A DNA stretch of 15,328 nucleotides, counting the filler, from an uncultured virus (IMG/VR IMGVR_UViG_2061766007_002127) (Duplodnaviria > Heunggongvirae > Uroviricota > Caudoviricetes). It is 2 parts of one record of this genome, joined end to end, with 100 filler letters (N's around TTAATTAATTAA, not from the genome) between each part and the next. Parts side by side here need not be neighbours in the genome. Positions count along the whole stretch, not along the records: positions 840 to 15,328 come from IMGVR_UViG_2061766007_002127; 1 more part is not named here. The stretch is one strand, 5' to 3'. This document shows, one piece after another, positions 2,088 through 14,825 of the stretch; position 1 is the stretch's first letter; every line of letters starts with the position of its first letter. Position numbers and translations under genes: made by a program. The notes beneath the pieces were generated by a model. That model saw only the letters and a list, made by a program, of their open reading frames with translations, ran no database searches and was not told where the DNA came from.

Positions 2088-3336
2088 ATGTCAAGCAAAG
2101 GTATTGCGACTACAATCACGGTGTGCGTCAGTCTTTTCGTGGCGCTGGTCATCTCATGCATGTTCATCCACAAGAACAACATCTCGCAGTTGCAGGTGAT
2201 ACAGTCCTTCACTGGAAAGACATCGGTGAAGACAACGGGAGGCATTTATTTCAAGATGTTCCCGACAATCTGGACGTACAACAAGACGAACCAGGTCGCC
2301 TTTTCGTTCGAGAAGGACGAGTCCAAGGACAACGACGGCGTGCATGTGTTCTTCAGCAACAAGGGGCAGGGAGATGTCTCGACTCAGGTCACGTACAACA
2401 TCCTTTCCGAGGAGGAGAAGGTATACAAGATGCACGAGCTGGCGAAGGGCGACGACGACGTGATAGACCGTCGAATCCTTGCGACAATCCGTGAAATCAC
2501 GATGCGCGAGGCTGGTCTCATCACCAGCTCCGAGGCAATCGAGAAGCGCGAGGAGTTCGCCAACAAAATCAGACAGCAGTTGCTGCACAACCCCGACTAT
2601 CTCGCCATCGGCGTGGACATCACGCAGTTCACCATCACGAACATCTCGTTCGACGACCTGACCATTCAGGCGTACAAGAAGGCGCAGGAAGCCGACTTGC
2701 AGAAGAAGACGGCAGAGGCTGAGAANNNNNNNNNNNNNNNNNNNNNNNNNNNNNNNNNNNNNNNNNNNNNNNNNNCAACAGGTCGCTGAATCCAAGGGCA
2801 AAGCCGAGGTCGAGAAGATGAAGGCGACGACCGATGCAGAGCGCGAGAAGGAGCTTGCAGAAATCAAGGCGAAGCAGGAGGTCGCAGTCGCAGAGCTGAA
2901 CAAGGAGAAGGCAATCATCGAGGCTAACAAGTTGCTTGAGGTCGCCGAAATCCAGAAGAAGGAGGAGCAGGCACGGCTGGAGGTCATCAGGATTCAGGCT
3001 GAGCAGAAGGTCGCTGAAGCCGAGGCGAAGAAACAGCAGATTGAACTTGCTGGCGACATTACGGAGAAGGATAGGTTCGAGCTGGAAATCCAGATGAAGA
3101 CAAAGGTCGATGTGGCGAAGGCTATCGCGCAGGGCTTGAACGGGATGAAGCTTCCGACAACGTTGTTCATCGGGGCGAACGGTGGTGGTGGCAAGGCTGG
3201 AAACGCGCTCGACTATCTCATCAATCTTCTTACCGTCCAAAAGGCTAACGAGGTGTCGAAGGCAGAGCCGATTGGCAAAGGGATGTATTCCAGTGGAATC
3301 ATGCTCAACGACATTAAGCGCGAGGCTGCTGAATAG
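2088..3336 (+). CDS. SPFH/band-7/flotillin-like membrane protein (one gene split by the N gap at 2726-2775)
   Basis: AGGAG RBS; N-terminal TM helix; GGIYFKMF and ...IGVDITQFTITNISFDD SPFH-like segments; long A/E/K-rich coiled coil (AEREKELAEIKAKQEVAVAE); C-terminal LPTTLFIG-GGG. The frame changes only across the gap. Confidence 0.8.
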
Positions 3337-3346
3337 CGGCAGACAG

Positions 3347-3559
3347 ATGACCAAGGACGAGTTCAACAGGACGATGGACGGGTACCTCTGGATTCTCCAG
3401 AGGGCGCGTGAAGTCCTTGACAGGAATGGAATCAAGGACATCGAGGGCGTTTCCAGCGTCGTCCCACATGACGGCAAGGTCGTCATCAAGTACCTGTACA
3501 GATGGGACAGGGAAATAGACGGCGACAGCCTTGAGGTGACGCTGGACGAATTCCTTTAG
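3347..3559 (+). CDS. Hypothetical protein, 70 aa (MTKDEFNRTMDGY...VTLDEFL)
   Basis: ATG 10 nt after the SPFH stop; codon style matches neighbours; the longer ORF-track start overlaps the SPFH gene. Confidence 0.7.
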   Translation: MTKDEFNRTMDGYLWILQRAREVLDRNGIKDIEGVSSVVPHDGKVVIKYLYRWDREIDGDSLEVTLDEFL

Positions 3560-3586
3560 ACAAAATCTGCCAGAATCTATGAAAAC

Positions 3587-3598
3587 ATATTATAATAT
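3587..3598 (+). promoter_or_regulatory. Candidate -10 element inside a 12-bp palindrome
   Basis: ATATTATAATAT is a perfect palindrome containing TATAAT (3591-3596), in an AT-rich intergenic region upstream of 3759. No good -35. Confidence 0.4.
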
Positions 3599-3693
3599 TC
3601 AAATGACTTGAAATCTTGTTTTCATGTTTCATATTGATTATGCTTGGAAATTGACTTTCTGACTTGATTTCCATCATCTCATATTGAGGTGTT

Positions 3694-3732
3694 CATCCAT
3701 GAAATGTCAGATTTTGCCAGATTTCATGGATG
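3694..3732. repeat. 12-bp perfect inverted repeat (hairpin or operator)
   Basis: CATCCATGAAAT (3694-3705) / ATTTCATGGATG (3721-3732), 15-nt loop, no U-tract. Confidence 0.7.
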
Positions 3733-3758
3733 TGAGTTGAAATCTGAAGGGGGGCTGA

Positions 3759-4141
3759 ATGAGAATGAGGATTGGATATGTGAGCAACTCGAGCTCGAGT
3801 TCGTTCATCGTGTACGGCGAGGTCGTCGGCTACAAGGAGGCTCTCGAACGGATGGATGGCGCGAACGTGTACTGCGTCGTCAAGGACGGCGGGACGAGCG
3901 GCGACGTGGCAGACTTCATATTCAGGATGAGCCGTGGTCGGATGGACAGGCTGGNNNNNNNNNNNNNNNNNNNNNNNNNNNNGTCGGCAGGATAATGAGG
4001 ACGAACGGGTTCTACGTCTGCGACATCGCAGAGCCGTTGACGGGAGGGGGCGTGTACGACTTCGACAAGGACCACAGCTCGCCTGGGACGGACTCCGACG
4101 ACGACGGCAACTTCATCGACTGGATTGAATGCAGGAGGTAG
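3759..4141 (+). CDS. Hypothetical protein with N-terminal R-x-G-Y-V-S-N-S-S-S-S-S-F motif (split by N gap)
   Basis: MRMRIGYVSNSSSSSFIVYG start after a G-rich RBS; after the gap (3955-3982) it continues in another frame as GRIMRTNGFYVCD...WIECRR*. I recognise the motif from uncharacterised phage/bacterial proteins. Confidence 0.7.
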
Positions 4142-4144
4142 AAT

Positions 4145-4447
4145 ATGGTCATTGNNNNNNNNNNNNNNNNNNNNNNNNNNNNNAGGGCTTTGAACGGCGA
4201 CAAGATATACGGATGCTTGTCGGACTGCGACATGGTTTGGTACGCCGACCTTTCCGACAGGGCGTTGCTCGACGAGTACGTTTCCATACNNNNNNNNNNN
4301 NNNNNNNTCGACAGCCTTGAGTTCATCTCGGAGGGCGACAGGGTCGACTTCGGCGTTGGCAAGTACCTGTTCATGTCGCACGAGGAGGAGTGGATTGAGA
4401 AGGTGGAGACTCCAGAGAGGCTAAGGGAGGTGTACGCATGTTGCTGA
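4145..4447 (+). CDS. Hypothetical protein (two internal gaps)
   Basis: GGAGGT RBS before ATG 4145; open frame either side of the gaps; overlaps the next start. Confidence 0.65.
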   Translation: MVIXXXXXXXXXXRALNGDKIYGCLSDCDMVWYADLSDRALLDEYVSIXXXXXXXDSLEFISEGDRVDFGVGKYLFMSHEEEWIEKVETPERLREVYACC

Positions 4448-4730
4448 GAAGGCTTTTGGAAATGGAGGAGGTCAGGGAATTCTGTTTCGTCATCGGGTTC
4501 GCCGTGGCGTTCATCGTGTTCTGNNNNNNNNNNNNNNNNNNNNNNNNNNNNNNNNNNNNNNNNNNNNNNNNNNNNNNNNNNNNNNNNNNNAGGAGAGCCT
4601 GCCGAGGGTCAACGGAATCCACGTGGTTGTAATCGACGGTCACGAGTACATCTACTTCGTGAACGGGGCGAAGGGAAGCGTCTGCCACAAGGCAGACTGC
4701 CAGAAATGCGTGAAAGGAGGAGACGAATGA
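4438..4730 (+). CDS. Small membrane-anchored protein with C-terminal H-x3-C-x2-C motif (split by gap)
   Basis: GGAGG RBS; TM segment FCFVIGFAVAFIVF; post-gap frame reads ESLPRVNGIHVVVIDGHEYIYFVNGAKGSVCHKADCQKCVKGGDE* with TGA 4728-4730 overlapping the next ATG (ATGA). Confidence 0.7.
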
Positions 4731-5002
4731 AGAAGTCGTACAAATGCGATGCATGCGGGGAGGAGTTCAAGAGCGAGAAGGAGTGCCTTGAGCACGAGAA
4801 GACCTGCATGACGACGGAGAACCTCATCAAGAGGATACGGGAGCTGGAGTCGAGGGTGGAGACGCTTGAGGCGTTGCTGAGGATGAAGGAGACATACGTT
4901 CCGTACATCCCTCCACAGCCACCACCAGAGTACCCTTCGTATCCACGCAACCCGTGGACGGTTCCACCTATCTGGTGCAGGGCGTCCGACGACGCGAAGT
5001 GA
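4727..5002 (+). CDS. Zinc-finger (C2HC-type) / coiled-coil / Pro-rich protein
   Basis: AGGAGG RBS; YKCDACGEEF-x7-EHEKTC; heptad stretch LIKRIRELESRVETLEALL; Pro-rich tail. Confidence 0.75.
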   Translation: MKKSYKCDACGEEFKSEKECLEHEKTCMTTENLIKRIRELESRVETLEALLRMKETYVPYIPPQPPPEYPSYPRNPWTVPPIWCRASDDAK

Positions 5003-5011
5003 ACGGGCGAC

Positions 5012-5051
5012 AATGCCTTCCATATATAATCATGGAAGGCATTTTTCGTTT
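5012..5051 (+). terminator. Rho-independent terminator
   Basis: 12-bp stem AATGCCTTCCAT / ATGGAAGGCATT, 8-nt loop, running into a T-rich tail (TTTTTCGTTT), 9 nt after the stop at 5002. Confidence 0.75.
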
Positions 5052-5077
5052 ATACGCGCCACAGTTTGCAGGCGTTT

Positions 5078-5127
5078 AAGAGCATTCAATAAAGGGGACA
5101 AGGACATGAGCATACCGAGTTACATCC
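5078..5127 (+). repeat. 50-bp exact direct repeat, copy 1 (leader + RBS + first codons MSIPSYI)
   Basis: AAGAGCATTCAATAAAGGGGACAAGGACATGAGCATACCGAGTTACATCC is identical to 6686-6735. Confidence 0.9.
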
Positions 5128-5840
5128 AGACATTCAGCACCGACATCGACGTTGCCAACACGGACACGTTGTTGCACCTGCTCGCACCTGGCGAGATTTT
5201 CATTGCGTTCACGAAGGAAGTCGTGGCGAACGGCGACGCCGTCGTGCCTCCTGGAACCAAGGTCGTGTTCAAGGAATCCAACGGTGGCTTGATAAGCGTC
5301 GTCGCGTGCGGGAGCAGGGAGAACATCAAGGAGTTCTACTCGTCTGGAAACGCCATAAAGGTCAGAAGCGCGTCGGTCGGGATGACCTGCTCCATGACTG
5401 GGATAGTGTTCGAAGGCACATGGCCCTCACCTGGTCCGACACCAGAGGAAAGCTCCACAAGTGGGGAGGAGGGAAGTTCTGCTAGTGGTGGCGAGGGAGG
5501 CTCCAGCAGTTCTGCTGGTGGTGGCGATTACAGCACCATATACCTGACCATGAGTGGCGAATGGGCAGACTCACGCTACAACGGGATGTACACATACTAT
5601 GACGACAATGTCAGCACGTTCCCGAACGGATACTGGAAAAAAGAAGATTACATACTTGGCAAGACGAACAACGATGGATGGCTTCTGCGAAAGGAAGATG
5701 AAGCAGGTTATTACCAGTTGCAGGGAAACCAGTATGCTGGCATCGGGGACTTGATTGGCATGACTCAATTCGACTTGTTCGGTGGCGAAGGGGACTATTA
5801 CGGTACATCTAACGTGACGATTAGCACCAATCCTCAATAA
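5106..5840 (+). CDS. Putative virion-surface/decoration protein A: ~100-aa core + Pro/Gly/Ser linker + aromatic-rich C-terminal domain
   Basis: ATG 5106 after a purine-rich RBS. Core motifs FIAFTKE, VFKE, GSRENIKEFY, SMTGI are shared with 5906-6625. Linker PSPGPTPEESSTSGEEGSSASGG. Function is inferred from composition only. Confidence 0.7.
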   Translation: MSIPSYIQTFSTDIDVANTDTLLHLLAPGEIFIAFTKEVVANGDAVVPPGTKVVFKESNGGLISVVACGSRENIKEFYSSGNAIKVRSASVGMTCSMTGIVFEGTWPSPGPTPEESSTSGEEGSSASGGEGGSSSSAGGGDYSTIYLTMSGEWADSRYNGMYTYYDDNVSTFPNGYWKKEDYILGKTNNDGWLLRKEDEAGYYQLQGNQYAGIGDLIGMTQFDLFGGEGDYYGTSNVTISTNPQ

Positions 5841-6685: not shown

Positions 6686-6735
6686 AAGAGCATTCAATAA
6701 AGGGGACAAGGACATGAGCATACCGAGTTACATCC
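6686..6735 (+). repeat. 50-bp exact direct repeat, copy 2, isolated between two 10-N gaps
   Basis: Identical to 5078-5127. Confidence 0.85.
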
Positions 6736-6744
6736 NNNNNNNNN

Positions 6745-7671
6745 NTGAAGAAGCTTGTGAAAATCACCGTCAGAGACAACTGGGCTGACGAAATGGAGCT
6801 CGAGTACGTCAGGACGATGCCGTTGTCCCAGTGGAAAAGGCTTGAGGCTAGGCTGTCCAAGTTCAGGACATGGGTCGACATGAACGTCGGCTCGAACGAG
6901 AGCGNNNNNNNNNNNNNNNNNNNNNNNNNNNNNNNNNNNNNNNNNNNNNNNNNNNNNNNNNNNNNNNNNNNNNNNNNNNNNNNNNNNNNNNNNNNNNNNN
7001 NNNNNNNNNNNNNNNNNNNNNNNNNNNNNNNNNNNNNNNNNNNNNNNTACAGGGACACCGAGAAGCTGTGGAAGTCCAGCGCCAGCAAGTCGTATGGAGT
7101 CGTGGTCGAGTTCGACAACCAGCCACGTGGAACGGACATGTACTCGAAGTTCTTCGAAGGGGATGCGTTCAGGCTGAACCGTCGCATGGTCGAGATTGAG
7201 AATATTGAAAAGGACGGGGCGTTCTACCTGAAGACGCACGATTTGCTCGAAATCGAGAAGGGCGACGAGAGGGATGGAATCCACAAGTTCCTGAAAAGCT
7301 GGAGAATGAACGGCAACTGGGGCAAGGACGTTGGCAATATGACCGTCCTCGACAGCCCGTTCCTGAGAAAACTGGACAGCCTTGAGAAGCTTGCATGTGG
7401 TGGCATGAGGATGCCCGTCAAGAATGCCGTCGGCACGATTGAATCCGTGAAGGAGCACATCCTTGAGATTGTCTACCTGAGGTTCTTCGTCGTGTTCAAT
7501 ACGAAGGAGGAGGCAGAGGCATTCCTGTCGGAAATCGACAGGAACGAGCAGTCCATACTNNNNNNNNNNNNNNNNNNNNNNNNNNNNNNNNNNNNNNNNN
7601 NNNNNNNNNNNNNNNNNNNNNNNNNNNNNNNNNNNNNNNNNNNNNNNNNNNAGACAGAGGAAACAGCTTGA
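6745..7671 (+). CDS. Hypothetical protein, 'DNWADEM' family, copy 2 (gapped; both ends approximate)
   Basis: (n)TG AAG AAG CTT GTG... gives MKKLVKITVRDNWADEMELEYV, colinear with 843-1817. The true stop may lie in the gap at 7560-7651. Confidence 0.8.
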   Translation, partial: XKKLVKITVRDNWADEMELEYVRTMPLSQWKRLEARLSKFRTWVDMNVGSNESXXXXXXXXXXXXXXXXXXXXXXXXXXXXXXXXXXXXXXXXXXXXXXXXYRDTEKLWKSSASKSYGVVVEFDNQPRGTDMYSKFFEGDAFRLNRRMVEIENIEKDGAFYLKTHDLLEIEKGDERDGIHKFLKSWRMNGNWGKDVGNMTVLDSPFLRKLDSLEKLACGGMRMPVKNAVGTIESVKEHILEIVYLRFFVVFNTKEEAEAFLSEIDRNEQSIXXXXXXXXXXXXXXXXXXXXXXXXXXXXXXXXTEETA

Positions 7672-8715: not shown

Positions 8716-9229
8716 ATGGAGAAGGAAGGTTTCATGACTGAAGGAATCGGGCATCTGGTCGGCGAGGAGCTGAAGAAGCCAGTCCTGTATTCGGTGTTGC
8801 CAGACGGAACGGAGGTACCGTATGACGAGAGGGATGTCCAGATTGTTGTAATCGGGAGGCTTGTCGGTATCGAGAGGTGCCTGAACGGCATGTACGCAAC
8901 CGTNNNNNNNNNNNNNNNNNNNNNNNNNNNNNNNNNNNNNNNNNNNNNNNNNNNNNNNNNNNNNNNNNNNNNNNNNNNNNNNNNNNNNNNNNNNNNNNNN
9001 NNNNNNNNNNNNNNNNNNNNNNNNNNNNNNNNNNNNNNNNNNNNNNNNNNNNNNNNNNNNNNNNNNNNNNNNNNNNNNNNNNNNNNNNNNNNNNNNNNNN
9101 NNNNNNNNNNNNNNNNNNNNNNNNNNNNNNNNNNNNNNNNNNNNNNNNNNNNNNNNNNNNNNNNNNNNGTTCAGGAGGGAGAGGCTGGAACTGGCAGAGA
9201 AGCTTAAGAGGAGATACGAGAATGGATGA
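8716..9229 (+). CDS. Hypothetical protein(s), largely lost in a 265-nt gap
   Basis: Open frame before the gap; after it, FRRERLELAEKLKRRYENG* ends at 9229 overlapping the methyltransferase start. Could be one or more genes. Confidence 0.5.
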
Positions 9230-9947
9230 CGACGGGATTCAATTATATCATGGGGACTGCTTCGAGATTATGTCTGGCATCCCAGACGGCTCAATCGACC
9301 TCGTGGCGACCGACCCACCCTATCTGATAGATGTCCACAATGGTGGGGGGATGTACGCCGACAGGAGCATGCAGTCTGCGATAGACGAGCTTGAGACGAG
9401 CGACATCAACGAGTCGTATGACATCTTCAGGTTCGCAGACATGCTGGAGCCGAAGTTCAGGAACGGCATAAACGCCTACTTCTGGTGCAACAAGAGGCAG
9501 ATTTACGACTACCTGAAATGCTACATCGACGGTCACGGATGCAGGTTCGAGATTCTGAAGTGGTTCAAGCAGAATGCGATACCGAACTACTCGAACAAGT
9601 ACATGACGGACACCGAGTACTGCCTGTACTTCTACAACGGGGCAGGGCACTGCCATCCAGAGTCGTACACGGACGCATCGACGCTGTTCGTCGGGAGCAT
9701 CAACCAGTCCGACAAGAAGGCATACGGGCATCCGACCATCAAGCCCCTTGCGTTCATGGAGAGGATGGTCAGGAATTCGAGCCTTGAGGGGGAGACCGTG
9801 TTCGACCCGTTCATGGGCTCTGGGACGACGGGTCTGGCGTGCAGGCTCCACAACAGGAGGTTCATCGGCATCGAGAGGAACGACGGGTACTTCGAGATGG
9901 CTAGGAAGAGGATATACAGGATAGGGGAGCAGGATTTCCTGTTTTGA
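9222..9947 (+). CDS. DNA methyltransferase, beta class (N6-adenine/N4-cytosine)
   Basis: GDC start motif, IDLVATDPPY catalytic motif, HPTIKP, VFDPFMGSGTTG SAM-binding motif, FIGIE; motif order is beta class; GAGGAG RBS. Confidence 0.95.
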   Translation: MDDDGIQLYHGDCFEIMSGIPDGSIDLVATDPPYLIDVHNGGGMYADRSMQSAIDELETSDINESYDIFRFADMLEPKFRNGINAYFWCNKRQIYDYLKCYIDGHGCRFEILKWFKQNAIPNYSNKYMTDTEYCLYFYNGAGHCHPESYTDASTLFVGSINQSDKKAYGHPTIKPLAFMERMVRNSSLEGETVFDPFMGSGTTGLACRLHNRRFIGIERNDGYFEMARKRIYRIGEQDFLF

Positions 9948-9952
9948 CGAGA

Positions 9953-10662
9953 ATGAAGATAGGAAGCGACATTGAGCTGTTGCAGGGCGACTGCCTTGAG
10001 CTGATGAAGGGGATTCCAGACCATTCGGTGGACGCAGTCATCTGCGACCCGCCTTATGAGACGACTGCGTGCGAATGGGACAGGGCTTTGCCAGTGGCGG
10101 GGCTCTGGGAGCAGTACGACAGAATCATCAAGCCGAAGGGCAACGTGGTGCTGTTCGGCGCAGGGCTTTTCGCGTACAGGCTGGCGCTGTCGAACGAGAG
10201 GAGGTTCAGGNNNNNNNNNNNNNNNNNNNNNNNNNNNNNNNNNNNNNNNNNNNNNNNNNNNNNNNNNNNNNNNNNNNNNNNNNNNNNNNNNNNNNNNNNN
10301 NNNNNNNNNNNNNNNNNNNNNNNNNNNNNNNNNNGAACAACCTGAAGTACGGAATCGGGGGCGTCGCGACCGACAACAAGGGGACGAGGCATCCGTCGAC
10401 CGTACTGGACTTCCCCCAGAAGTGGCGCAGGCAGGACCAGGTTCATCCCACCCAGAAGCCAGTCGAGCTCATGGAGTGGCTCGTGAAGTCGTACTGCCCG
10501 CAGGGGGGGCTTGTCCTTGACAACTGCATGGGCTCTGGCACGACTGGAATCGCATGCAGGAACACTGGCAGGAAGTTCATCGGAATCGAGATGGACGAGG
10601 GGTACTTCGAGATTGCGAGGAAGAGGATTTCTGGCGAAGGCGAGCAGGAGACGCTGTTCTGA
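9953..10662 (+). CDS. Second beta-class DNA methyltransferase (split by gap 10211-10334)
   Basis: GDCLELM, VDAVICDPPY, HPTQKP, VLDNCMGSGTTG, FIGIE. Confidence 0.93.
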
Positions 10663-10675
10663 GCAGGTGGATGAG

Positions 10676-10948
10676 ATGAAGAGAAGATACGGCATGTGCC
10701 ACGAGTGCGACAGGATGATGTCGTGCTGGCAGGACGGGAAGGAAATCGGGTGCTTCTGCCGTCAGAGGGAAGTGGAGCCTTCGATGAACATTAGAATCGA
10801 GAACGGCGAATTTGTCATGTACGGTGGTCGCACGAAGGACAGCGTAATCTCGTCGAGGGAGAACTGGGATTCGCTCGACGTGCCTCGCGACTGCGAATTC
10901 TACGCGGAGCGCTTCATGGAGGAGTGCAATGAAGAGAAGATACAATGA
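10676..10948 (+). CDS. Cys-rich array protein 1
   Basis: MKRRYGMCHEC...GCFC...VPRDCEFYAERFMEECNEEKIQ. Confidence 0.85.
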   Translation: MKRRYGMCHECDRMMSCWQDGKEIGCFCRQREVEPSMNIRIENGEFVMYGGRTKDSVISSRENWDSLDVPRDCEFYAERFMEECNEEKIQ

Positions 10949-11162
10949 CTGCAGGAAATGCGACAAGTTCAGGCACGTGTACAGCGCGTTGGACGGCAAG
11001 TGGCTTGTGAGGTGCATGGCGACGAGCTGGAGCGAGGGTGGCGTGTCGTTCGAGGAGATTCTACGCGACAAGGAGGAGGAGTGGAACGGCTCCGAGCTTC
11101 CCATTGAATGCGTGTACTACGCAGACAGGTTCGTGGAGGAGTGCAATGAAAAGAAGGCTTGA
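10929..11162 (+). CDS. Cys-rich array protein 2
   Basis: MKRRYNDCRKC...VRC...LPIECVYYADRFVEECNEKKA. Confidence 0.85.
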   Translation: MKRRYNDCRKCDKFRHVYSALDGKWLVRCMATSWSEGGVSFEEILRDKEEEWNGSELPIECVYYADRFVEECNEKKA

Positions 11163-11385
11163 CATATGCAGGAGGTGCAGTTGCTTCAGGCGCGTGTCGA
11201 GAAAAAGCAACATGGGGAACTTGTACTGTTTCCACGAAGCCTTCTTCGACGGCAATGGCGATGAAATAGGCGTGGCGTGGTTCAACTTGCATCACAGCCA
11301 CGACTGGAACAAGGCAGACATCGCAGAGAATTGCGACTGCTATGCAGAGTATTTTGTGGAGGAGTGCAATGAAAAGAAGGCTTGA
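11146..11385 (+). CDS. Cys-rich array protein 3
   Basis: MKRRLDICRRC...LYC...IAENCDCYAEYFVEECNEKKA. Confidence 0.85.
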   Translation: MKRRLDICRRCSCFRRVSRKSNMGNLYCFHEAFFDGNGDEIGVAWFNLHHSHDWNKADIAENCDCYAEYFVEECNEKKA

Positions 11386-11599
11386 TGTCTGCAGGAGGTG
11401 CAGGATGATGGAGCCATGCCCTCACTGGGAGGGTCAGAAGCCTTCCTATCTGTGTGGAACATACCAGGAGGTGCGAGGGAACATGATATTCATCGAGGAC
11501 AACATCACGGAGGAGGAGTGGGTTCGCAGGGAAGTTCCAGACGGATGCGACATGTACGCAGAGTACTTCGTGGAGGACTGCAACAATGCTGAAGCGTGA
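11369..11599 (+). CDS. Cys-rich array protein 4
   Basis: MKRRLDVCRRC...YLC...VPDGCDMYAEYFVEDCNNAEA. Confidence 0.85.
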   Translation: MKRRLDVCRRCRMMEPCPHWEGQKPSYLCGTYQEVRGNMIFIEDNITEEEWVRREVPDGCDMYAEYFVEDCNNAEA

Positions 11600-11850
11600 T
11601 TTCAGGAAGTGCAAGACGTGTGGCAGGTTGCGCGAGGTGATGGTGTTCGACTCGGAGCTGCATTCCTATTTCTGTGGCTCNNNNNNNNNNNNNNNNNNNN
11701 NNNNNNNNNNNNNNNNNNNNNNNNNNNNNNNNNNNNNNNNNNNNNNNNNNNNNNNNNNNNNNNNNNNNNNNNNNNNNNNNNNNNNNNNNNNNNNNNNNNN
11801 NNNNGTACGCAGAGTACTTCGTGGAGGAGTGCAATGAGGAGAAGGCGTGA
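11586..11850 (+). CDS. Cys-rich array protein 5 (gapped; the gap could hide further units)
   Basis: MLKRDFRKCKTC...YFCG [gap 11681-11804] YAEYFVEECNEEKA*. Confidence 0.75.
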
Positions 11851-12094
11851 GATATGCGGCAGGTGCAGGTTCCTGTTCAACGGCGCAGGGGAAGGTGGCA
11901 GGAGGTATGCGTTCTGCATGAACACGGATTTGCACGGGAGCAGCGCGTTCTACGAGGCTGTCGCCAAGGCGAATCCAGCCAACTGCCCCGAGGACGAGTT
12001 CTTCGGGAGCGAACACGACGAGGATGTATTCTCGGAGTGCCCGTACAAGGCAGAGTATTGCCTGATAGAGTGGAACAATGAAAAGAAGAATTGA
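11834..12094 (+). CDS. Cys-rich array protein 6
   Basis: MRRRREICGRC...AFC...FSECPYKAEYCLIEWNNEKKN. Confidence 0.85.
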   Translation: MRRRREICGRCRFLFNGAGEGGRRYAFCMNTDLHGSSAFYEAVAKANPANCPEDEFFGSEHDEDVFSECPYKAEYCLIEWNNEKKN

Positions 12095-12302
12095 CATATG
12101 CAGCAAATGCGAGCAGTTCATAGAATGGAAGGAATATTGTCCAGGCTCCATGTCGTGTGGTTGCATCTATTCCGAGATGGTTTTTCCTTTCAAGATGACG
12201 AGGAACGAATTCCTTGGCAGGGATGTCCCCGACAATTGCATGATGAAGGCAGAGTATTGCTTAATTGAATGGAACAATGAGAAGAAAATTGGAGATATGT
12301 GA
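12078..12302 (+). CDS. Cys-rich array protein 7
   Basis: MKRRIDICSKC...SCGC...VPDNCMMKAEYCLIEWNNEKKIGDM. Confidence 0.85.
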   Translation: MKRRIDICSKCEQFIEWKEYCPGSMSCGCIYSEMVFPFKMTRNEFLGRDVPDNCMMKAEYCLIEWNNEKKIGDM

Positions 12303-12490
12303 GAACTGCAGCCAGTTCTATTCGTTTGCGACGTGCAGGAAGACGGTGTGCAGGCTTGCTGGAGGCGAGATGGCGAATCCAGTTCTCAGGGACATCAATA
12401 TTCCGTTCGAGTCGAGAAAGGTTCCAGAGAACTGCGTTTTCCTTGCAGAGCAGATGATGGCGAATTTTAATGAAGGAGAAGNNNNNNNNN
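12277..12490 (+). CDS. Cys-rich array protein 8 (stop presumed in or near gap 12482-12491)
   Basis: MRRKLEICENC...TVC...VPENCVFLAEQMMANFNEGE. Confidence 0.8.
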
Positions 12491-12940
12491 NCCTGTTCGA
12501 GGCGAAGGCTGACGTGGTGATGCACCAGTGCAACTGCATGTGCGTCTGGGGGGCGGGGGTAGCCGTCAGAATGAAGGAGGTGTTCCCAGAGGCGTATCAG
12601 GCAGACATGGCGACAGGCGCAGACAAGTGGAAGTTCGGTGGCACCAGCCACGTAGAGATAGCGCGTGAGAACCCGATGGGCGTGAAATGGGTCTACAACC
12701 TGTACGGGCAGGNNNNNNNNNNNNNNNNNNNNNNNNNAGTTCGAGAGGGCGTTTGCTCAGGCTTTGTGGCAACTGGACAGGAAGTATCCCGAGCACTGCG
12801 AGATTGCAATACCGTATCTGATTGGATGTGGACTGGCAGGNNNNNNNNNNNNNNNNNNNNNNNNNNNNNNNNNNNNNNNNNNNNNNNNNNNNNNNNNNNN
12901 NNNNNNNNNNNNNNNNNNGTACAGGCTCGTTAGGGATTAG
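12470..12940 (+). CDS. Macrodomain protein (Poa1/TARG1/DarG-like ADP-ribose processing), three internal gaps, end approximate
   Basis: MKEK..LFEAKADVVMHQCNCMCVWGAGVA...FP...VYNLYGQ, and in the post-gap frame IAIPYLIGCGLAG; both are macrodomain signature loops. Confidence 0.88.
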
Positions 12941-13038
12941 CCTCCCGAACGGCTGGTCATTTTCCGTCTATTTTCAAGCGCTATTCAAGGTACAATATGA
13001 AAGAAGGAGAAAATTGTTTCTAAGATAGGTTTTGGGAG

Positions 13039-14825
13039 ATGAGACAGTCGTCATTGGTATTTTTCGACCCGTCGAAGCAACTTGTCGTCTCGAGGGACAA
13101 CAGGTTGCCAGCATTGGACGGGAGCAGTCTGACGTGCATCAAGCCGTCGAGCGTCAAGATTTGGTTCACGACGGAGAACTCCGACAGCGTGATATGGGAC
13201 GAGGGGCATGAGGTCGCCACGGTAGCCCACGGTCTCGGATGCTTCCCGATTGTGTCGGTGTTCGACGAGGAGGGGGAGCAGTTGTTCCCGACCATCACGC
13301 TGATAGACGGTCTGTCGTTCACGATGGACTTCGGCGAGGAGGTCTACATCCCGTCTGGTCATCCGTGCTGTTGCGTGGTCGGATATCAGAGCGACTACGG
13401 CGATTCCACTGGCGAGCACGANNNNNNNNNNNNNNNNNNNNNNNNNNNNNNNNNNNNNNNNNNNNNNNNNNNNNNNNNNNNNNNNNNNNNNNNNNNNNNN
13501 NNNNNNNNNNNNNNNNNNNNNNNNNNNNNNNNNNNNNNNNNNNNNNNNNNNNNATGCAGGGCGCGACATTGATGACTGCCTTCGTCGACAATGGAACGGC
13601 GTCCATTCAATGGAACGACGCGCCAGCCTACTCTACTGGGTACGGAAGCGTGTCGACGTGGAAGTCGACGATTCTCGTCGCAAGCTACAGCCATCTGCCA
13701 GAGTCGGTCGACGACGGGGAGGTTCTTGTCGAGAACACGGTCAGGGACGCATACTCGTCGACCCCGTTCACGTTCGAGATGGAGCACGACGCCGTGTTCA
13801 TCAGGCTGTTCACGAGGATGTTCAACGACTCGATTTCGCCCTTGTCGCTCTCTCCTGGTCAGCAGTTAATCAACGTCGTCATCGAATCGCTCGGCGACTT
13901 CATGGAATACCTGAGGGACGGGGAGGTCGACGTGCTGAGGTCGGTGTATCCAGTCGGCTCTACCCTTCCGTTCGTGTCGCATTCGGAGTACACGCTCATG
14001 ACGTATCTGATTGGTCACTACGACTACACTGGCAACTACAATACGGTGTCCGACTATCTGAACGACGAGAACAGGTCGCACAACGTCATCCTGATACCAG
14101 CCACGGGCATCGCTGGCTCGAACGGGAACAGGATAGTAATTCCATACGACCTGTACGAGAAGACGAGCGCGTTGAGCCAGGACACGTCGTTCGTGTCTGG
14201 CAAGACGTACTACACGACGAACCAATGCACGTCTGCGTACAACGTGAACAACGCGCAGGAAGGGGACACGCCAGTTTCCCTCGGTCTGTACGAGAAGGGC
14301 AGGATAGTCACGGCGAACACGGGCTACGGCGTGTACGAGGAGTCGTTCATGAGGCAGTTCCTGACGAGCGACGCCGCGTCTGGGTGGTACCATCCACGGA
14401 ACATCTTCGAGCCTGCGTCCCATACGTTCGCGTCGAACCACGCTGGCTTCCTCTACGGTCTTGACTCCACGACGAAGTCGTACATGCATCCTGCGAGGAA
14501 CATGTACCTGACGTACAGGAACGTCCAGTCAATCGTGTACGACGCAGTGTTCCTCCCGAACAACTTCATGTTGATGAGGAGCGACGAGAACGGGTTCGGT
14601 CAGCAACTGGAGTACTTCAGGAGGATGACGACGAACGCGCAGAGGATACAGAGGGACCCGAACGGCGCAGCGCTGTACGCATGGTCTGGAAGCCAGGCGA
14701 ACCAGCCGAACAAGCCAGAAAACCTGATAAACCTGAGCACGGAGGGCGCGTGGAGCGTTGCAGGCAAGCTTGAGGGAGGTTCGAAGCAACTGGACGGAAC
14801 GGTTCCGTTCCTGTGCCTCGCATGA
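13039..14825 (+). CDS. Putative tail-fibre/receptor-binding protein with DUF6273-like C-terminal domain (one gene split by gap 13422-13553, or two genes)
   Basis: N-terminal VAHGLGCFPIVSVFD motif typical of phage structural proteins; W-x2-T...P-x4-DG...Y module; DTSFVSGKTYY; then YEESFMRQFL, GFL, DAVFLP, LEYF and terminal GTVPFLCL resembling DUF6273-type domains (recognised by eye, not searched). Confidence 0.6.

Follow-up and report, generated by a model that had tools for sequence, protein, structure and literature searches.

The window analyzed here, meaning the whole stretch of 15,328 nucleotides (nt) including its filler, comes from an uncultured virus of the Caudoviricetes (IMG/VR IMGVR_UViG_2061766007_002127). 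Its long open reading frames (ORFs) all lie on the plus strand, and those of its genes that can be read are phage-like. We observe eight small co-oriented genes, termed U1 to U8, in an array with two DNA methyltransferase genes upstream and a macrodomain gene downstream; the products of U1 to U8 belong to one cysteine-rich family (Table 1). Seven of the units are readable in the window, U5 is partly masked, and the end of U8 is hidden by a run of N's. The original prediction, made from the DNA sequence, had described eight consecutive small paralogs with fixed ends, and a hidden Markov model (HMM) trained solely on 52 units of other phages finds exactly these units. It matches seven of them at expectation values (E) between 6e-19 and 3e-11 and the N-terminal part of U5 at 6e-4. 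Out of 255 stop-to-stop ORFs in the window the same model matches no others, and at E<=10 it matches 0 of 700 shuffled versions of the units.

In an alignment of the seven complete units, the invariant residues are M1, R3, C8, C11, C73, A77, and N85 (U1 numbering), and the motifs that had been read at both ends, together with a further cysteine (Cys), are correct. This third Cys falls at residues 25 to 30. Pairwise identity of the complete units to U1 is 21 to 38%. Counterparts of single units occur elsewhere: a protein near-identical to U2 (P0001), orthologs of U6 as unit 2 and unit 3 of the arrays on two other contigs, L037 and L026, respectively, and an ortholog of U7 as unit 3 of L037 (87% identical). 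All genes have one orientation, and the arrangement is the one expected of a translationally coupled operon that would also include the methyltransferases and the macrodomain gene.

Table 1. Positions in the window of the array units, the junction repeats, and the flanking features
Feature	Position	Strand	Description
U1	10676-10948	+	90 amino acids (aa); first unit of the array; begins 13 nt past the stop of methyltransferase 2; independent HMM E 2e-14
U2	10929-11162	+	77 aa; ATG 20 nt within U1; independent HMM E 3e-11
U3	11146-11385	+	79 aa; overlaps U2 by 17 nt; independent HMM E 9e-17
U4	11369-11599	+	76 aa; overlaps U3 by 17 nt; independent HMM E 8e-16
U5	11586-11850	+	N run 11681-11804 inside; N-terminal 32 and C-terminal 14 residues visible
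U6	11834-12094	+	86 aa; overlaps U5 by 17 nt; independent HMM E 3e-13
U7	12078-12302	+	74 aa; overlaps U6 by 17 nt; independent HMM E 6e-19
U8	12277-12491	+	68 residues visible; overlaps U7 by 26 nt; end within N run 12482-12491
Junction repeat, reference copy	11109-11180	+	~72 nt
Junction repeat, other copies	10892-10963, 11332-11403, 11554-11599, 11797-11868, 12047-12119, 12246-12318	+	
DNA methyltransferase 1 (N6_N4_Mtase)	9222-9947	+	Pfam PF01555 E 1.5e-27; phrog_67 E 2e-57; upstream of the array
DNA methyltransferase 2 (N6_N4_Mtase)	9953-10662	+	Partly masked; stops 13 nt ahead of U1
Macrodomain protein gene	12482-12933	+	phrog_335 E 2e-18; start masked, two more masks inside; directly after the array
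Terminator-like hairpin with T-rich tail	12935-12958	+	Consensus scan only; 3' of the macrodomain gene

A family with four fixed cysteines and a variable middle

A word-seeded search returned 15 relatives only, mostly near-identical orthologs of window units on small metagenome contigs, and a full HMMER pass over 1.84 billion cluster representatives gave 171 at E<=1e-3, with 18 at E<=1e-10. Nearly all of these representatives are 63 to 105 aa long and are matched end to end. A few members are two-unit fusions or carry N-terminal extensions, and at least one match, to a 432-aa repeat protein (P0151), looks spurious. Two-unit in-frame fusions (184 to 230 aa) or single units with a very long insert (138 to 141 aa) are represented by the array-strand stretches 4546-5172 and 10161-10784 of contig L024 and by the proteins P0036, P0058, P0131, and P0153, so that units also fuse and their inserts also grow.

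Family members (59 to 105 aa) begin with M-[KN]-R-[KR]-x2-[IV]-C-x2-C-x2-F, carry the third Cys 13 to 20 residues later, and end with [FW]-x3-[DE]-[VI]-P-x2-C-x3-E-x4-[ED]-[WC]-N, a pattern satisfied by 7 of the 7 complete window units. Among 207 non-identical members of single-unit size, many of which also went into the profile, conservation of Cys reaches 98, 98, 98, and 100% at positions 9, 12, 29, and 60 of the profile, respectively. Other conserved positions are E65 (94%), N72 (89%), R4 (86%), and P57 (81%), and positions 13 to 50 carry near-zero information. A four-Cys scaffold around a variable middle, as proposed from the window units, thus holds family-wide.

No known family could be assigned at the outset, and this remains the case after searches with 114 members. 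In Pfam, no family had more than one member matched among the matches listed (25 of 52 families, E<=10). PHROGs gave 2 weak matches among the 114, both to phrog_13558 and limited to the N-terminal knuckle, NCBIfam gave none, and PADLOC gave no match to a defense family. The best PDB sequence-profile match, at E 0.049, is not credible. Against cultured phages, neither megablast of 9171-13400 nor tblastn of U7 (E<=1) returned a match. A protein-language-model atlas offered Pfam DUF6171 (PF19668) as a lead, with feature scores of 0.84 to 0.85 and the family present on 15 to 29% of cluster members. These too are small viral Cys-containing proteins, but the atlas clusters, at 48 to 58 aa, are shorter than the array units. 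We rejected the lead because the PF19668 model (gathering cut-off, 27 bits) matched nothing at E<=10 on contig G001, although this contig has at least 20 units; PF19668 also had no match for seven window units at E<=0.1 and none among the Pfam matches listed for the 114 members at E<=10. Our literature search found no description of this protein family, and in the literature searched the family appears to be undescribed, as do its architecture of overlapping junctions, its evolution by cassettes, and its scale.

One stretch of DNA encodes two protein ends

The start codons of U2 to U8 each lie 14 to 26 nt within the preceding gene, always in the next frame, and a purine-rich stretch formed by E-E or E-W codons lies 6 to 8 nt before each of them. 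The codons of ...V-E-E-C-N-E-K-K-A-stop, for example, also give GGAGGAG 6 nt before an ATG and then the M-K-R-R-L-D of the next unit. The conserved C terminus of one unit and the N terminus of the next are therefore the same ~70 nt read in two frames. This stretch recurs as a repeat of 46 to 73 nt at all seven junctions, encoding the C-terminal helix and tail of a unit, the purine-rich ribosome-binding stretch, and, in another frame, the start and M-K-R-R...C-x-x-C of the following unit. The junction copies are the only repeats in the array region. Across arrays, successive units overlap mostly by 17 nt (generally 3n+2) or by a 4-nt ATGA.

The tail past [CW]-N mirrors the M-K-R-R of the next gene. 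The basic N terminus is present even in first units that overlap nothing (U1 and the first units of L037, L026, and L002), and the tails of last units are variable, which suggests that the N-terminal motif is selected and that the tail is largely a by-product. A stretch of ~70 nt that holds both protein ends, the coupling signals, and recombination homology is an unusual gene organization, and these multiple roles would allow members to be gained and lost without breakage of the reading frame. A frameshifted polyprotein was rejected, given that every unit begins at a start codon of its own with a purine-rich stretch before it. We likewise rejected a shufflon-like inversion system, as the units are all co-oriented, no recombinase is present, and no joints were seen.

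Arrays in related phages

Arrays were searched for with a degenerate DNA motif for A-E-Y-[FC]-x-x-E-[CW]-N and then with the family profile; the motif fits just 29 of 161 fetched proteins, so that the scans are far from exhaustive. Besides the window, the motif scan yielded at least seven further distinct array-bearing contigs, each with between 5 and 37 units: L002 (19 to 20 units in 42.8 kb; L011 is the same record), L024 (37 units, 22.3 kb), L017 (17 units, 25.2 kb), L066 (16 units, 13.1 kb), L026 (11 units, 3.7 kb), L097 (7 units, 1.9 kb), L033 (5 units, 1.1 kb), and L037 (5 units, 7.6 kb). L002, L024, and L017 tile at 99.98 to 100% identity into one region with ~42 profile-defined units (~39 genes) over 11.7 kb and a macrodomain gene at its end. 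Homologs thus do occur in arrays of variable number and order, from 5 to ~40 units, which answers a check proposed at the outset. The 42.8-kb contig of L002 (G001) is rated 13% complete which, as an estimate only, suggests a very large phage.

Two further groups of matches lie near these arrays. A second, weaker cluster of family-profile matches (E 1.6e-10 to 9e-3) occupies positions 28265-32197 of G001, ~6 kb upstream of the main array; many of its matches cover the C-terminal helix only, and it may be a more diverged sub-array. An atypical distant member of ~100 aa (E 1e-4 to 2e-4), in which C-K-E-C / C-L-K-C replaces the usual start, precedes the main array, with other genes between, in two unrelated arrays (L002 1114-1431 and L066 3784-4074).

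In the scan of viral contigs, one of four loci was a true array, and its record is also among the metagenome-contig arrays; a search of viral contigs for related loci gave 42 pattern stretches, of which none was confirmed. The motif scan of representative bacterial and archaeal genomes, one per species, gave 63 loci with no true member and two marginal partial matches at E ~4e-3, and no prophage or host was found there.

The gene order methyltransferase(s)-array-macrodomain is shared by the window, L026, and L037, and it is seen in part in L017 (array then macrodomain) and L066 (methyltransferase then array). Methyltransferase 2 of the window matches Pfam PF01555 in its C-terminal part (E 2.8e-23) and phrog_12862 and phrog_67 in its N-terminal part, and its DNA is 79 to 83% identical to the methyltransferases upstream of the L026 and L037 arrays. 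Full-length macrodomain relatives (158 to 163 aa) come after the arrays in L017, L026, and L037, and the copy in L017 has matches to PDB 5e3b, "Macrodomain protein" (E 1e-5), and, below the cut-off, to Pfam Macro (E 1e-3). A consensus scan, as for the terminator, found no plus-strand promoter-like site in 9000-13400. Near the arrays of L037 (array-strand 597-1802 and 3023-5246) and L017 (5968-7113) lie accessory enzymes of nucleotide or nicotinamide adenine dinucleotide (NAD) type. Among these neighbors are N6_N4 methyltransferases, three in a row, a protein that combines a nucleoside 2-deoxyribosyltransferase-like domain with a metallophosphoesterase domain, and a protein of 382 aa that has a cytidylyltransferase-like domain.

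A stable repertoire changed by whole units

The best identity of a unit within its own array has medians of 30 to 37% and a maximum of 47%, whereas orthologs between arrays are 57 to 91% identical, which indicates that the paralogs are old and that the individual types persist. Types found in more than one array occur in the same relative order, and whole units are present or absent: the order is a-b-c-d-e in L037, a-b-x-x-x-d-f-e-U8 in L026, and U1-U5-b'(U6)-c(U7)-U8 in the window. Homology between window and L026 DNA begins at 12221, within the V-P-D-N-C block of U7, and spans U8 into the macrodomain gene, with unrelated cores upstream. Such breaks within the junction point to it as the place where arrays are cut and rejoined. 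They are not always clean, as two different units before type d share the last few codons only. The exchange cassette would accordingly be offset from the gene, and may comprise the C-terminal helix of one unit with the N terminus and core of the next.

The cores had been called hypervariable. This is true between paralogs but not between orthologs, in which the pooled core ratio of nonsynonymous (dN) to synonymous (dS) substitution is ~0.28. Pooled over ten ortholog pairs, which overlap and are not independent, dN and dS are 0.065 and 0.535 at the N-terminal end, 0.110 and 0.387 in the core, and 0.175 and 0.70 at the C-terminal end; double coding in the overlaps distorts dS at both ends of a unit. 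Judged by these substitution rates, the orthologous cores are under purifying selection. Between U7 and its L037 ortholog, 0 of 35 core residues are changed, with 4 silent changes, and 7 of 22 residues differ at the C-terminal end. In three type-e orthologs, 3 to 4 of 53 core residues differ versus 7 to 10 of 22 to 25 residues at the C-terminal end.

We also observe this lineage's stretch in sequencing runs of 12 studies, with the labels bovine gut or gut metagenome; one of the samples may be the window's own source. Contigs of four runs from four studies are colinear over 9900-13100, mostly with 90 to 99% likeness, and one 3.25-kb contig spans U1 to past the macrodomain gene. The joints in these contigs fall only at masks and between the two methyltransferase paralogs, and nothing in the contigs of the four runs indicates that units are still being shuffled, or are changing in copy number, in this lineage. 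The suggestion of ongoing core diversification is not supported by these comparisons: orthologous cores are conserved, no pair within an array exceeds 47% identity, and the array is colinear in four runs. As far as sequence comparison can tell, this is a stable repertoire altered by cassette exchange and not by hypermutation, and fixed ends with a variable core between paralogs need not mean ongoing hypervariation.

Predicted structure of a unit

An AlphaFold model of U7, made with a 114-sequence alignment, has a predicted local distance difference test score (pLDDT) of 87.4 and a predicted template modeling score (pTM) of 0.71, with the lowest confidence in the variable stretch. In this confident, compact model, the CxxC sits in a short helical turn at the N terminus, and a hairpin (14-17/24-27) ends at the third Cys. 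The variable part contains two short helices, and a long C-terminal helix (57-72) comes straight after the fourth Cys. The conservation of the four Cys suggests that they would form a single metal site, most likely for Zn2+.

The best Foldseek match in the PDB has E 4.5, and the best VIA-align match among 48,161 chains has a Z score of 3.0, with no Z >=2 upon re-checking, which does not make the fold new. In BFVD the best match has E 0.56, and no predicted viral structure is alike. The PDB searches gave no fold match to DNA-binding zinc fingers, an absence of match that is not evidence of absence. What emerges is ~170 clusters of confidently foldable mini-proteins of ~75 residues without a curated-family or solved-fold match, which take up to ~12 kb in some phages.

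Masked regions and other features of the window

The N runs of the window (e.g., 10211-10334, 11681-11804, and 12482-12491) do not preserve length, as bridging relatives and public contigs hold 11 to ~45 extra bases, and one contig spans the U5 mask with more letters than the mask has. The apparent frameshifts in methyltransferase 2, U5, and the gene of an SPFH/band-7 protein, as well as an apparent fusion of U8 to the macrodomain protein, are therefore masking artifacts, since the masks are shorter than the real DNA. The visible parts of U5 lie in different frames on either side of its mask and give no read-through in the window, and P0083 is an intact 91-aa ortholog. The U8-macrodomain fusion was rejected as an in-frame join due to the 10-N mask: U8 orthologs (P0006, P0011, P0013, and unit 11 of L026) are stand-alone proteins of 69 to 75 aa, and in three relatives (L017, L026, and L037) the macrodomain gene begins at a start codon of its own. 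The SPFH/band-7 protein (window 2088-2789 and 2818-3336) is read in two frames across a mask, both halves matching phrog_11908, and full-length relatives (417 aa in L066) sit upstream of the L002 and L066 arrays.

Away from the array, positions 3-791 encode a radical S-adenosylmethionine (SAM)-like or Fe-S oxidoreductase-like protein (phrog_7293, E 9e-51), with homologs that are ~40% identical in 171 cultured phage records, mostly of T4-like phages of Klebsiella, Enterobacter, and Cronobacter. An exact direct repeat of 50 nt occurs at 5078-5127 and 6686-6735, 1608 nt apart. Each copy contains a purine-rich stretch and an ATG with which a different downstream frame begins, the first seven codons being shared (M-S-I-P-S-Y-I), and the repeat looks like a duplicated gene start or regulatory cassette. 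Finally, 843-1817 and 6757-7671 are paralogous genes of 304 to 324 aa without a family match, which have the N terminus M-K-x-x-x-x-D-N-W-A-D-E-M-[DE]-[IL]-E-Y-V in common and whose 5' regions form a 130-nt repeat of 73% identity.

Possible roles of the arrays

We tentatively favor, at somewhat below an even chance, a repertoire of metal-held mini-binders aimed at host proteins, most plausibly defense or takeover targets. Each unit would be a compact cytoplasmic mini-domain around one metal ion, most likely Zn2+, with ligands from the N-terminal CxxC knuckle, the Cys that ends the beta-hairpin, and the Cys just ahead of the C-terminal helix. The segment of 15 to 60 residues between the third and fourth Cys, different in every paralog and kept by purifying selection, may then form a paralog-specific binding surface. 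An array would represent a set of specific binders that most plausibly inhibit host proteins, defense components for instance, or act as decoys of them. Translational coupling would ensure their co-expression with the methyltransferases and the macrodomain enzyme. The junction would also double as a homology patch at which unequal or inter-phage recombination could add, drop, and swap units with frames intact. If the units specifically bind host proteins, each array is an inhibitor catalogue and the scaffold a compact natural display framework. A bolder version, which we regard as doubtful, is a counter-immune repertoire in which one metal-held mini-scaffold carries dozens of stable specificities, each neutralizing a different defense or takeover target and exchanged as in-frame cassettes by way of the junction, which would serve as protein end, ribosome-binding site, start codon, and recombination patch together. 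If true, the array size of 5 to ~40 would track the breadth of defenses met by the phage lineage.

Several points weigh against a repertoire of binders. No homology ties any member to a function, and the putative binder or anti-defense role is read from the gene neighborhood (methyltransferases and macrodomain, and nucleotide/NAD-type enzymes in relatives). The putative metal binding is read from Cys conservation, and U3, modeled with 16 sequences, gave a poor result (pLDDT 58.5). E-[WC]-N may owe part of its conservation to a ribosome-binding role for the next gene, the breakpoint evidence comes from few arrays, and the estimates of selection carry the limits given with them. Among proteins of 173 to 2000 aa, no fused form with a known domain scored that might point to a partner, which is weak evidence. 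Finally, 38 of 207 members are basic, so nucleic-acid binding is possible for some.

This last point belongs to a different explanation, an unlikely one in our view, in which the units are small zinc-finger nucleic-acid binders, either specific transcription factors or structural DNA- or RNA-binding proteins of a large phage, with a different site per paralog. Cys4 mini-domains are often nucleic-acid binders, and the basic M-K-R-[RK] N terminus is kept even in first units without an upstream overlap. The isoelectric point (pI) exceeds 8 in those 38 members; most members, however, are acidic, with a median pI of 5.6 and 124 of 207 below 6. A precedent is the zinc-ribbon proposal for Bacillus phage G (PMC7824862), in which our profile A3 nevertheless finds 0 matches at E<=1, with 28 in the positive-control contig G001. 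Moreover, 40 specific regulators in one operon beside counter-defense enzymes would be unusual.

Somewhat less probable again is a protein-level role outside host conflict, with the units acting as assembly chaperones, virion-internal proteins, or metal buffers. Such housekeeping would be equally compatible with purifying selection and with an array that is stable in four runs, but a range of 5 to ~40 copies between related phages, with gain and loss of units, is atypical of core functions, and the array sits among accessory and modification genes and not in a structural module.

Tandem Cys-rich small genes with conserved ends and variable cores also resemble precursor arrays for ribosomally synthesized and posttranslationally modified peptides (RiPPs), and the phrog_7293 gene at 3-791 offers a radical-SAM-like candidate for the processing enzyme. 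We nonetheless consider this very improbable and rejected it, as no modifying-enzyme, protease, or transporter genes flank the arrays in the window, L026, L037, L066, and L017. The phrog_7293 gene lies ~10 kb from the array and was not seen adjoining the L026, L037, and L066 arrays, and U7 has no match at E<=1 in the cultured T4-like phages that carry its homologs. The units themselves, at 59 to 105 aa, are predicted to fold and are conserved at both ends.

Least credible of all is a recent gene accordion, in which a counter-defense gene is amplified into head-to-tail tandem copies with repeated junctions, as is reported for phage T4 under toxIN selection (bioRxiv 10.1101/2022.04.14.488369), or targeted hypermutation of the cores, and we regard the accordion form as refuted here: near-identical neighboring copies are absent (maximum 47%), orthologous units are conserved between phages, the contigs of four runs are colinear without unit-skipping joints, and a diversity-generating retroelement target was rejected with no reverse-transcriptase family among 22 window proteins, no template repeat in the window, and junctions as the sole repeats of the region.

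Comparison with known systems

The preferred set of mini-binders can be placed beside several known systems. Treble-clef and zinc-ribbon domains are built from a CxxC knuckle and a beta-hairpin, and a C-terminal helix has a further ligand beside it. In its secondary structure, the unit model likewise has an N-terminal CxxC knuckle, a beta-hairpin, and a further putative ligand by the C-terminal helix. However, no solved structure matched, and the putative second half-site of the units is formed by two single Cys 25 to 60 residues apart and not by a CxxC.

Phage counter-defense islands are well known and comprise methyltransferases, macrodomain and NAD-related enzymes, and anti-CRISPR operons. 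The array resembles them in its place directly between DNA methyltransferases and a macrodomain gene, in its variable gene content, and in its small acidic proteins. It differs in that no unit matches a known anti-defense or defense family (PADLOC, 0 of 114; no consistent match in Pfam or PHROGs), and our literature search found no described counter-defense island made of up to 40 paralogs of one fold.

By analogy, the arrays also recall venom knottins, conotoxins, and defensins, which are disulfide-held, Cys-scaffold multigene families of conflict systems. Shared features are invariant structural Cys, a variable remainder, tandem paralogs, and a family size that varies between lineages. In contrast, the array units are phage-encoded, cytoplasmic, and presumably metal-held, and their variable part gives no sign of positive selection between orthologs.

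The closest parallel in scale is Bacillus phage G, for which Iyer et al. 2021 (PMC7824862) describe a lineage-specific expansion of ~35 zinc-ribbon copies, proposed as specific factors. Both cases involve a large phage with dozens of paralogs of a small Cys-based domain that binds, or here would bind, metal, but there is no detectable sequence relationship, profile A3 having 0 matches in the whole phage G record at E<=1. Paralog expansion of small zinc modules in large phages has been noted once before, and by profile comparison the family here is a separate one without homology to it. It is distinguished by a Cys pattern of CxxC...C...C, in which the third and fourth Cys enclose the variable insert, and by its arrangement as one putatively translationally coupled array of overlapping genes at a fixed position between methyltransferases and a macrodomain gene.

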